Below, piece after piece: positions 22,002-23,075 of a stretch of 27,491 bases of DNA. Each line of letters begins with the position of its first letter. Position 1 is the stretch's first letter. The translations under genes and the position numbers were made by a program. The notes under the pieces are model-generated. The model did not search any database, was not told the DNA's origin, and worked only from the letters and a program-made list of their open reading frames with translations. The stretch lies in the IMG/VR virus record IMGVR_UViG_3300029914_000110. One strand, given 5' to 3'. The DNA is from a virus.

Positions 22002-23075
22002 TTAAACTTTTTCTAACACTTTCATACCCAACAAAACCATCCCCTGCTGAAGCACCCCACCTGCGTATTGCAGTGAGTAGACCAGCCCGGAGTCGCCATG
22101 TTGAATCGACTTCTTGCTGTAGACCTCAGAGAGCTTCTTTGCCAGCTTCAGAATGAACTGTGCGATGTGGCACGGCTCCTTCTCGTCAATGGCTTTTTGC
22201 CAGTAGAATTGGAAGTAGCTTGCGTACCCACACAGAGCCACGTCTTCCGGTGTCATCTGACTCGGGTCAGCCTCTCCTGCAAGCAGCAAGGCCTTCTGAA
22301 TCTTGGCATTGGTGTGCGAGATGTAGATGCCGGGGCTGCTAATGTTGCACCAGCTCTTCACGTCGCAAACTGTATTCTTCACCACTGAGGTGGAGTTGAA
22401 CTGCCACGCCAGCACATTCCAAGCTAACTCTGTCGGCTGCTCGGTGGTGGGCTTGAGAACTGCCAAGACGGCACCCATCAGTTCGTCGGCGGTCATTGCA
22501 TTGGCTTGCTCCCCATCCAGCTTCACCGTGCTCCGCATCTTCTTTTGGTCGGTGCCCAGAACAAGCCCCATGGGCAAGTGTTTGTCGCCCAGACCTAAAG
22601 AGATGAAATGCGGATGTTGCTCCTGCCCGGTCAGGTAGAAATCCGGCTTGACCAACTCCGCGAAACTCAAATCGTGAGCGGCATAAGTCGCCACACCCGA
22701 GGACTTGTAAACCACCACCGTGTCCAGCATCTTGCAGCCCGCGTACTCATCCTCACCATCAGTCAGAGCCACAGTCGGAGCCGGGAGCCCGGTGTCGTAA
22801 TAAATCTCCGGGTGGTAACCCGCGAGTTGACACCACGCTTTGTACCCTGTCAGAGCACCGTCTTTAACCCCGTTTGCTGCCCCCAACATGGCGACAGGCT
22901 TGGCACTGGTGATATTCGCTATCGCCGCTGCCACACAAAGGTTCTTCAGGTGTCCGACGTGCAAGTCTTTATTCAGGTTCGGGGAGAAGCCATCGAAGAC
23001 AATACCGGATGGTTCCGCTACAGTAGGGTACTTCCACGCTTGTGGAGTAACATGATAGTTATGGTGAATACCCAC
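22002..23075 (-). CDS. Class-I aminoacyl-tRNA-synthetase catalytic-core protein of the TyrRS type, 357 aa. It lacks a C-terminal anticodon-binding/S4 region, and starts at GTG.
   Basis: GFSPNLNKDLHVGHLKNLCVAAAIANITSAKPVAMLGAANG aligns to TyrRS [39 protein letters not shown] (HIGH motif HVGH). It also carries a GxDQ motif (LVLGTDQ) and a KMSKS-like KKMRS. Confidence 0.7.
   Translation of the reverse strand: MGIHHNYHVTPQAWKYPTVAEPSGIVFDGFSPNLNKDLHVGHLKNLCVAAAIANITSAKPVAMLGAANGVKDGALTGYKAWCQLAGYHPEIYYDTGLPAPTVALTDGEDEYAGCKMLDTVVVYKSSGVATYAAHDLSFAELVKPDFYLTGQEQHPHFISLGLGDKHLPMGLVLGTDQKKMRSTVKLDGEQANAMTADELMGAVLAVLKPTTEQPTELAWNVLAWQFNSTSVVKNTVCDVKSWCNISSPGIYISHTNAKIQKALLLAGEADPSQMTPEDVALCGYASYFQFYWQKAIDEKEPCHIAQFILKLAKKLSEVYSKKSIQHGDSGLVYSLQYAGGVLQQGMVLLGMKVLEKV

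Follow-up and report, generated by a model that had tools for sequence, protein, structure and literature searches.

The window analysed here, a stretch of 27,491 nt from the virus record IMGVR_UViG_3300029914_000110 of IMG/VR (positions count from its first letter), carries on its minus strand, from 23160 to 22002, a gene for a predicted arginyl-tRNA synthetase (ArgRS) with a +1 break of its reading frame at an Arg codon. The gene product almost certainly belongs to the ArgRS family, and the break very probably marks a programmed +1 frameshift. We consider it likely that the compact enzyme is produced through this frameshift, which would sense the scarcity of charged Arg-tRNA. An earlier note on this DNA had flagged the open reading frame (ORF) of 357 amino acids at 22002..23075 (minus strand, GTG start in the ORF listing) as a truncated tyrosyl-tRNA synthetase (TyrRS)-like gene. 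The ORF and the motifs quoted from it (GFSPNLNKDLHVGHL, KPVAMLGAANG and GTDQKKMRS) are present. It is not the whole gene, since 21 conserved N-terminal codons lie upstream in another reading frame, beginning at GTG 23160. The most notable features are located outside the flagged ORF or are invisible by eye: the +1 break at the Arg codon, the near-zero Arg content of the protein, and the parallels in genes that resemble histidyl- and tryptophanyl-tRNA synthetases (HisRS-like and TrpRS-like).

Only two Pfam domains were matched in the protein, the ArgRS catalytic domain tRNA-synt_1d and DALR_1 (PF05746; residues 268-356, E 8.6e-8, 32.7 bits against a cut-off of 22.3). ArgRS entries rank first in a phmmer search of the PDB sequences, and a profile built from 102 homologues yielded 12 PDB sequence matches, all of which are ArgRS (best 1.6e-21). 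The AlphaFold2 model of the 357-residue ORF has a predicted local distance difference test score (pLDDT) of 95.4 and a predicted template modelling score of 0.93, and the model of the full-length relative P0010 reaches a pLDDT of 96.5. The top 20 Foldseek matches in the PDB are all ArgRS (E 1e-16 to 1e-11), followed by GluRS, CysRS and MetRS. The best NCBIfam match is argS (TIGR00456; E 2e-12), with 46.2 bits against an equivalog cut-off of 261.65. Judged by sequence, the compact protein is a divergent, shortened ArgRS subfamily. The earlier description of a class I aminoacyl-tRNA synthetase (aaRS)-like protein, much shorter than the cellular enzymes, therefore stands, but its placement with TyrRS does not. 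The tRNA-synt_1b domain and the TyrRS-like fold of class Ic enzymes were not found, the former even at E ≤ 10, and a TyrRS or TrpRS assignment is ruled out by the Pfam, PDB profile and Foldseek matches.

The arginine-binding residues of E. coli ArgRS are D118, N123, Y313, D317 and Q341 (PMC3956977). Residues D28, N33, Y131, D135 and Q153 of the 357-residue ORF align to these positions and are invariant or at least 90% conserved among the 102 homologues. His39, Gly41 and His42 of the HIGH motif, which aligns to the HVGH of ArgRS structures, are invariant in the same set, and Lys179 and Ser182 of the KMSKS-like loop are nearly invariant; a loss of catalytic residues was not seen. A class Ia ArgRS is thus represented by its Rossmann-fold catalytic domain with the HIGH signature, by its arginine-recognition residues and by its C-terminal DALR (Add2) domain. 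The N-terminal Add1 domain (~100 residues) is missing, and Pfam gave no match to the N-terminal ArgRS domain. Only ~55 residues precede the HIGH strand in the frameshift-corrected protein, and its alignment starts at about residue 96 of Thermus thermophilus ArgRS. Internal insertions are also missing, with query residues 57-120 corresponding to T. thermophilus residues 137-291. The protein had been thought too short to hold a C-terminal anticodon-binding region; the DALR domain is that region, and the absent parts are Add1 and the internal insertions. The gene thus likely encodes a 385-residue compact ArgRS that comprises a Rossmann catalytic core and a DALR domain, lacks Add1 and large insertions, and would have arginylation activity. 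Add1 of canonical ArgRS reads A20 in the D-loop of the tRNA. Orthogonality through a lost A20 identity element is not supported, since all four phage tRNA-Arg genes retain A20 in the D-loop.

The compact form is widespread in large phages. In total, 192 relatives were found, typically of 380-410 residues and many on contigs of 200-650 kb; viral contigs that carry the gene reach 533 kb. An exhaustive profile search gave ~120 compact-form metagenome clusters (50% identity) at E below ~1e-33, and canonical ArgRS sequences (535-611 residues) rank only beneath them, as two-stretch matches. Compared with the canonical bacterial argS products (TIGR00456; 6AO8, 4OBY, 1IQ0, 1F7U), which comprise 550-610 residues, the window gene encodes 385 residues, lacks Add1 and ~100 residues of insertions, is nearly free of Arg and is split by the +1 break. 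A 385-residue 'Arginine--tRNA ligase [uncultured marine phage]' in BFVD (UniProt A0A8D9CCB2) exhibits the same fold (Foldseek E 1.4e-25, template modelling score 0.72). It shares the architecture and length of the window protein; the proposed frameshift gate is peculiar to the window clade. We regard the protein as a new compact ArgRS variant. Compact phage ArgRS sequences are already present in databases as automatic annotation only. In two relatives the compact module forms part of a longer protein: it is the C-terminus (residues 685-1077) of the 1077-residue P0136, and in P0115 (573 residues) it bears a 122-residue N-terminal extension and a Cys/Pro-rich insertion.

The frame break separates a 24-codon ORF1 from the enzyme body (Table 1). 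The first 21 codons of ORF1 encode the conserved N-terminus of the family (~28-35 residues, consensus M.P.P...GVG......G[YF].Y...G.[YH]HNYH) and are homologous to the in-frame N-terminus of the unshifted relatives P0010 and P0014. The frame of the flagged ORF itself reads ...AGFDYKPVGIHHNYH. The proposed P-site codon is Leu CUU (23100-23098, codon 21), followed in the 0 frame by Arg CGC (23097-23095), and the skipped base would be C 23097. Three nucleotides upstream of CUU lies an internal GGAG that resembles a Shine-Dalgarno (SD) element, and GGAGNNNCTTC occurs nowhere else on the window's coding strand. The same arrangement occurs in L001, L002, L003, L031 (identical in L036, L041 and L042), L037, L038, L039 and L040. 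Nine distinct sequences with 64-85% mutual identity share the +1 break. They derive from independent samples and pipelines (Logan, JGI and ENA), and for one phage all four separate assemblies show it. An assembly or sequencing error is rejected on these grounds. The unshifted relatives are at most 61% identical to the window protein, and the corresponding site in one of them, TTG GAG TGC TTA GGC, is one base shorter. The same Arg-site frameshift was not found in the more distant ArgRS-like genes L004-L030, all of which are continuous.

The consensus of the site is [C/T]TG GAG NNN CTT CG[C/T] [C/G]GG GTT T[GA][AG], in which GGAG is kept in 9/9 relatives including the wobble positions, and the codon ahead of CTT varies (TAC, TGC, TGT, TAT or GGT). 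Wobble positions are invariant at 5 of 8 sites in this block, compared with 3 of 71 sites flanking it (Fisher p = 1.3e-4). The 0-frame stop is retained even where the +1-frame residue has changed (TAG in L037). All nine relatives have AGGAG or GGAGA 6-9 nt ahead of the start codon. Synonymous substitutions reveal use of the first frame through the codon before CTT and of the second frame from GGG TTT onward. The ratio of nonsynonymous to synonymous differences (pN/pS) is 0.34 upstream (codons 2-17) and 0.26 downstream of the break, with pS of 0.61-0.76; both parts are therefore under purifying selection. In the model of an unshifted relative, the N-terminal 36 residues form β-strands with pLDDT of 96-97, which argues that this peptide belongs to the same polypeptide as the enzyme. 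When the 357-residue form is modelled alone, its first 10 residues fall to pLDDT 65.

A slip of CUU to UUC followed by GCC would yield ...PLEYL-AGFDYK..., which aligns without a gap to ...SLECL-GSFKHE... of P0010, both proteins having 385 residues. The predicted junction peptide is ...APLEYLAGFDYKPVGIHHNYH; a slip at CUU_C would give L-A-G-F and a slip at GUU_U would give L-R-R-V-D. We infer both that frameshifting occurs and where the ribosome slips. Transcriptional slippage is unlikely, as the site has no homopolymer run. A -1 frameshift does not fit, as the frames require +1 (or -2) and no in-phase X_XXY_YYZ heptamer is present. Compared with a P-site slip on the invariant CUU_C, quadruplet decoding by a tRNA with an expanded anticodon is the less parsimonious option: the candidate Arg quadruplet is variable (CGCC, CGCG, CGTC), and neither a tRNA-Leu nor a tRNA with an 8-nt loop was seen in the tRNA islands.

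Two known +1 frameshift systems resemble the element. The prfB site reads AGG GGG UAU CUU UGA C and comprises an SD-like element, a 3-nt spacer, a CUU slipping to UUN and a slow A site; its ORF1 has ~25 codons, and the shift senses the level of release factor 2 (RF2) (PMC5009743). The window site reads GGAG UAC CUU CGC C. It shares with prfB a short ORF1 (shift at codon 21 here, at codons 25-26 in E. coli prfB), a slippery CUU_N with an SD-like element 3 nt upstream (GGAG-NNN-CTT-C in 9/9) and a main body in the +1 frame, an organisation that is kept across relatives; like RF2, the window protein would act on decoding at the A site. Unlike in prfB, where a UGA in the A site is sensed by the gene's own product, the A site here holds a cognate sense codon (Arg CGC or CGU, together CGY), the 0-frame stop follows three codons further, and the sensed species would be an aminoacyl-tRNA rather than a release factor. 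Ty1 and ABP140 use CUU_AGG_C, at which tRNA(Leu) slips while a hungry Arg codon occupies the A site (PMC5009743). The likeness extends to the proposed slip of peptidyl-tRNA(Leu) on CUU, the slow Arg codon and the heptamer form CUU-Arg-C (PMC5009743). In contrast to Ty1, the context is bacterial or phage, an SD stimulator is present, CGY replaces the rare AGG, and the regulated gene is the synthetase for the same amino acid, which would close a feedback loop. The shift element would thus function as prfB and Ty1 do without belonging to either kind, its A site being occupied by a cognate sense codon.

The enzyme body itself is nearly devoid of Arg. The corrected protein contains 1 Arg in 385 residues, compared with 5.45% Arg in the 13 other ORFs of the window (binomial P = 1e-8). 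The sole Arg codon is CGG (22535-22533), and no in-frame CGY is present. Together, the nine frame-broken ArgRS genes contain 17 in-frame Arg codons, none of which is CGY, and several unshifted relatives contain no Arg. All relatives of sufficient length also carry a gene for tRNA-Arg(ACG), a CGY reader.

These features are consistent with the following scheme. Translation would initiate at GTG 23160. With ample Arg-tRNA(Arg), ribosomes would read CUU-CGC-CGG-GUU-UGA and release a 24-residue peptide. When decoding of the A-site CGC is slow, the peptidyl-tRNA(Leu) may slip from CUU to UUC, helped, as in prfB, by the internal GGAG 3 nt upstream, and the ribosome would continue in the +1 frame to produce the full enzyme. 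The remaining mRNA, with one Arg codon (CGG) and no CGY, could be translated even under scarce charged tRNA-Arg. The enzyme would then recharge tRNA-Arg, including the four phage-encoded species, and so close a negative feedback loop. Amino-acid starvation, host shut-off, or a defence system directed against tRNA or aaRS may cause the scarcity.

Three unrelated synthetase families exhibit the same combination, namely a break at which the 0-frame A-site codon is cognate to the enzyme and proteins in which the cognate amino acid is avoided. The same phage clade carries mini-genes that encode HisRS-like (~165-200 residues) and TrpRS-like (~240 residues) proteins. The HisRS-like cores have motifs 2 and 3 of class II but lack an anticodon-binding domain. 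The HisRS-like genes of L002, L038, L039 and the distant L016, together with a remnant in the window, begin with a short ORF that ends ...GGAGG NNN CTT CAT..., with the body in the +1 frame. Eighty-three HisRS-like loci were classified and 80 viral loci were fetched; 63 genes have an uninterrupted frame, and 17 distinct ones have a break that in every case needs +1. In 16 of the broken rows, [C/G]TT is followed by the His codon CA[T/C], mostly after GGAGG or GGGGG plus 3 nt; the row for L038 was a motif-detection artefact, and its CTT-CAT site was read by hand. One HisRS-like site reads GGGGGTATCTT, exactly as in E. coli prfB. No His is found in 19/19 distinct broken HisRS-like proteins and in 36/51 continuous ones. 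In L003 the TrpRS-like gene has its break at CUU UGG G, and its joined product matches the unbroken gene of L041; no further frame-broken gene was found among the TrpRS-like loci compared. Trp is absent from 12 of the 13 mini TrpRS-like proteins. By simple codon counting, the chance of a cognate A-site codon in all three families is about (6/61)(2/61)(1/61) = 5e-5. On a 482-kb contig (L028), HisRS-like, TrpRS-like and ArgRS-like genes all lie within 5 kb.

The HisRS-like remnant of the window is located between tRNA-Trp and tRNA-Lys/His genes and lacks residues 53-85 of the L002 protein. Its leader is intact, and so is its shift motif GGAGG-CGT-CTT-CAT (GGAGGCGTCTTCAT) at 26746-26731, with the His codon in the A site. 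The remnant is probably a pseudogene, and it is the only other mini-aaRS ORF in the window.

Taken over the three families, sensing of the cognate aminoacyl-tRNA is probable, and several observations weigh against it or against the identity of the enzyme. The argS equivalog score is far under its cut-off (46 vs 262 bits). The enzyme lacks Add1 while the phage tRNA-Arg genes keep A20, and efficient charging is not guaranteed. The conserved GGAG also encodes a Leu-Glu pair that is already present in the unshifted L004, and its conservation may be partly a matter of coding. A slip at GUU_UGA three codons downstream may also be compatible with the sequence. The nine ArgRS cases represent one clade and one evolutionary event, and an Arg codon at the site is, taken alone, a coincidence of about 1 in 10, so that the case relies on the parallels in HisRS-like and TrpRS-like genes. 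Ribosomes usually decode CGC and CGU well.

The strongest competing explanation is that the frameshift is real but operates at a fixed ratio, either to keep ArgRS low or as a tolerated 'corrective' shift, and does not sense Arg-tRNA(Arg). A conserved break with its motif would fit any programmed +1 shift, the codons CGC and CGU are normally fast, and the ArgRS cases come from a single clade. A fixed ratio would nevertheless predict neither a cognate A-site codon nor depletion of exactly the cognate amino acid. A His codon occupies the A site of at least 17 broken HisRS-like genes, with two different P-site codons, and a Trp codon occupies that of the TrpRS-like case. We regard a fixed ratio as unlikely.

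Still less probable is the absence of any frameshift, with the 24-codon ORF acting as an independent leader peptide (attenuation-like, with tandem Arg codons) and the enzyme starting as a 357-residue protein at GTG 23075. Gene callers do start several relatives at M/V-(GI)-HHNYH, and the end L-R-R-V-stop recalls attenuator peptides. The called internal start, however, has no SD ahead of it. In L031, L036 and L041 the first in-frame ATG, GTG or TTG lies within the HIGH motif or beyond it, so that P0011 (296 residues), the product called for L031/L041, would lack the active site. The leader is also homologous to the in-frame N-terminus of unshifted relatives, a confidently modelled β element, and the start of the 357-residue form modelled alone has a lower pLDDT. 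To much the same degree, a role outside translation is improbable. Such a protein could use its DALR domain to keep tRNA-Arg away from a host anticodon nuclease, by shielding or sequestering it, or feed Arg-tRNA or Arg-AMP to, e.g., the neighbouring R2K ATP-grasp ligases. The ATP, arginine and KMSKS-like elements are strictly conserved, for which a pure binder would have no need; tRNA-Arg genes surround the gene, and gating at a cognate codon together with cognate avoidance points to the charged-tRNA pool as the controlled variable.

Decay of a pseudogene through a 1-nt insertion is very improbable. The break does lie close to the 5´ end, and a truly degraded HisRS-like gene is found 3.5 kb away in the same window. 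That gene, however, has several breaks and an inversion, whereas the ArgRS gene has exactly one break, always at one and the same motif, in nine lineages with nearly saturated synonymous sites, similar constraint on both sides of the break and all catalytic residues intact. The idea of an anticodon-blind TyrRS-like enzyme that mischarges neighbouring type-II tRNAs can be set aside almost entirely: a HIGH-type motif, a KMSKS-like loop and nearby long-variable-arm tRNAs with Asn, Lys and Trp anticodons are present, but the ArgRS family assignment contradicts it, and the tRNAs that such an enzyme would naturally serve are the four tRNA-Arg species encoded in the island. Cognate Arg-tRNA sensing through a programmed +1 shift thus remains the preferred explanation.

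Table 1. Location of the ArgRS gene and its elements, of related mini-synthetase loci and of neighbouring features. Positions refer to the window unless a locus is named.
Feature	Position	Strand	Basis or remark
Shine-Dalgarno GAGGAG	23168..23173	-	7 nt 5´ of the true start
ORF1 (0 frame), GTG 23160, 24 codons, VKPMPEVVGVGVTSIAPLEYLRRV	23086..23160	-	stop TGA 23088-23086
Internal SD-like GGAG	23104..23107	-	3 nt 5´ of slippery codon, spacing as in prfB; invariant in 9/9 relatives
Proposed shift site CUU_CGC	23095..23100	-	CTT 9/9; CGC 7/9, CGT 2/9
ORF2 (+1 frame), AGFDYKP plus the 357-residue ORF	22002..23096	-	to stop 22004-22002; 385 residues when joined to ORF1
Arginine-binding residues D28, N33, Y131, D135, Q153	22617..22994	-	alignments and PMC3956977
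HIGH motif HVGH, residues 39-42 of the 357-residue ORF	22950..22961	-	conservation and ArgRS structure alignment
KMSKS-like loop KMRS, residues 179-182	22530..22541	-	includes the protein's only Arg (CGG 22535-22533)
DALR anticodon-binding domain, residues 268-356	22008..22274	-	PF05746; helical in both models
Degraded HisRS-like mini-gene, leader MKQVRGTRLLTGAEAKRRRLHP-stop	26283..26795	-	tblastn fragments in three frames and one inverted piece
HisRS-like loci	L002 1571-2074; L038 732-1352; L039 852-1349; L044-L123		
HisRS-like shift cassette of L067			GGGGGTATCTTCAT
TrpRS-like loci	L003 3782-4520; L041 18598-19341; L124-L137		
tRNA-Arg(ACG)	24327..24403	-	would read the CGC sensor codon after A34-to-I editing; likely enzyme substrate
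tRNA-Arg(CCG)	25477..25553	-	reads the gene's one in-frame Arg codon CGG
tRNA-Arg(UCG)	24900..24976	-	
tRNA-Arg(CCU)	17450..17526	-	
Long tRNAs	21870-21958; 23382-23474; 26816-26911		
Rfam tRNA, 134 nt	23669-23802	-	51 bits; missed by ARAGORN
Further tRNA-like fragments	~23321-23376 (-); 23583-23648 (-); 23917-23937		
RIIA	9540-11966		
RIIB	8315-9547		
PTH2 peptidyl-tRNA hydrolase ORF, archaeal/eukaryotic type	5074-5502	-	E 1.1e-5, 26 bits vs cut-off 23
819-residue protein with major-vault-protein shoulder and Vault_3 domains	2484-4943	-	conserved beside the island in L001
Two R2K-clade ATP-grasp proteins	5601-6509; 18323-19168	-	recur near aaRS genes in L039 and L041

The gene lies within a tRNA island of a phage, as the earlier note had recognised. 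The 13 tRNA genes located by ARAGORN lie without exception on the minus strand. Four of them encode tRNA-Arg (CCU, ACG, UCG, CCG), and three of the 13 are long (89-96 nt). RIIA, RIIB, Ku-like and HNH endonuclease genes in the window support a phage origin. The tRNA-Arg(ACG) gene is also found in L001, L002, L003, L036, L038 and L039. In tRNA-Arg(UCG), G19-C56 appears by eye to be swapped to C19-G56 (D-loop AATTGCATTA, T-loop TTGGAGT). The tRNA with a GUU anticodon that had been singled out as odd is indeed 93 nt long, with a 5-bp variable-arm stem. It is not a one-off derived from tRNA-Tyr and tied to the enzyme, as pairs of long-arm and normal tRNAs occur throughout the clade. Long tRNAs (85-96 nt) with type-II-like arms and Lys, Asn, Trp, His, Gln and Arg anticodons are present in the window and in L001-L003, L036, L038 and L039, often paired with a tRNA of normal length and the same anticodon. 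Nearly all tRNAs of the islands are for Trp, His, Arg, Asn, Lys, Gln or Met. The long Asn and Trp tRNAs keep a G73 discriminator, and the long Lys(UUU) tRNA has C73. The long tRNAs are possibly dedicated partners of the mini-aaRS enzymes, nuclease-resistant copies or decoys.

An 18-nt direct repeat, CAATTCTGCCACGATTCC, which is the 5´ end of the long tRNA-Lys(UUU), flanks the ArgRS gene at 21941-21958 and 23184-23201 with a spacing of 1243 nt, which suggests a tRNA gene as the place where the ArgRS gene was inserted or underwent rearrangement through recombination. The tRNA missed by ARAGORN has ~60 extra nt in its anticodon arm and may hold an intron. One of the further tRNA-like fragments is a 3´ half ending ...GGTTCGAGTCCTACCTGAGGAGCCA, directly upstream of the ArgRS leader; another consists of a T-arm followed by a piece that resembles an acceptor/D-arm, with a weak YrlA-like match (E 0.09), and a third is an isolated T-arm-like repeat. 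The PTH2 gene fits a translation-maintenance toolkit.

Huge phages have been described with many tRNAs and up to 15 aaRS genes, which were proposed to charge the phage tRNAs (Al-Shayeb et al., 2020; PMC7162821). Those synthetases are host-related and TIGRFAM-confirmed; domain-stripped forms, cognate avoidance and frameshift gating were not reported (PMC7162821). The literature searched, which included the recoding review PMC5009743 and left most subscription journals outside, yielded no characterisation of a compact phage ArgRS and no precedent for frameshift-gated aaRS genes.

The ~385-residue ArgRS without Add1 and the ~195-residue HisRS-like core are attractive minimal scaffolds for synthetase engineering, and the shift cassettes could act as compact reporters of individual tRNA charging. 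T-box riboswitches, attenuation and translational operators are among the known controls of aaRS genes, and we know of no control of an aaRS by a programmed frameshift at the cognate codon of the enzyme itself. If the proposed sensor is real, it would be the second natural case, after RF2, of a translation factor that gauges its own product by frameshifting, and the first in bacteria or phages to read a sense codon. It would also account for the systematic truncation of these phage aaRS genes by gene callers and make sense of the extreme degree to which the cognate amino acid is avoided. We lean, by a small measure, toward the view that large phages carry 'emergency charging' modules, that is, domain-stripped Arg-, His- and TrpRS-like enzymes that are nearly free of their cognate amino acid, many of them gated by a +1 shift at a cognate codon, and made when aminoacyl-tRNA is depleted (e.g. 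by starvation, host shut-off or a tRNA-targeting defence). The depletion of specific aminoacyl-tRNAs would then be a selective pressure in infection by large phages.

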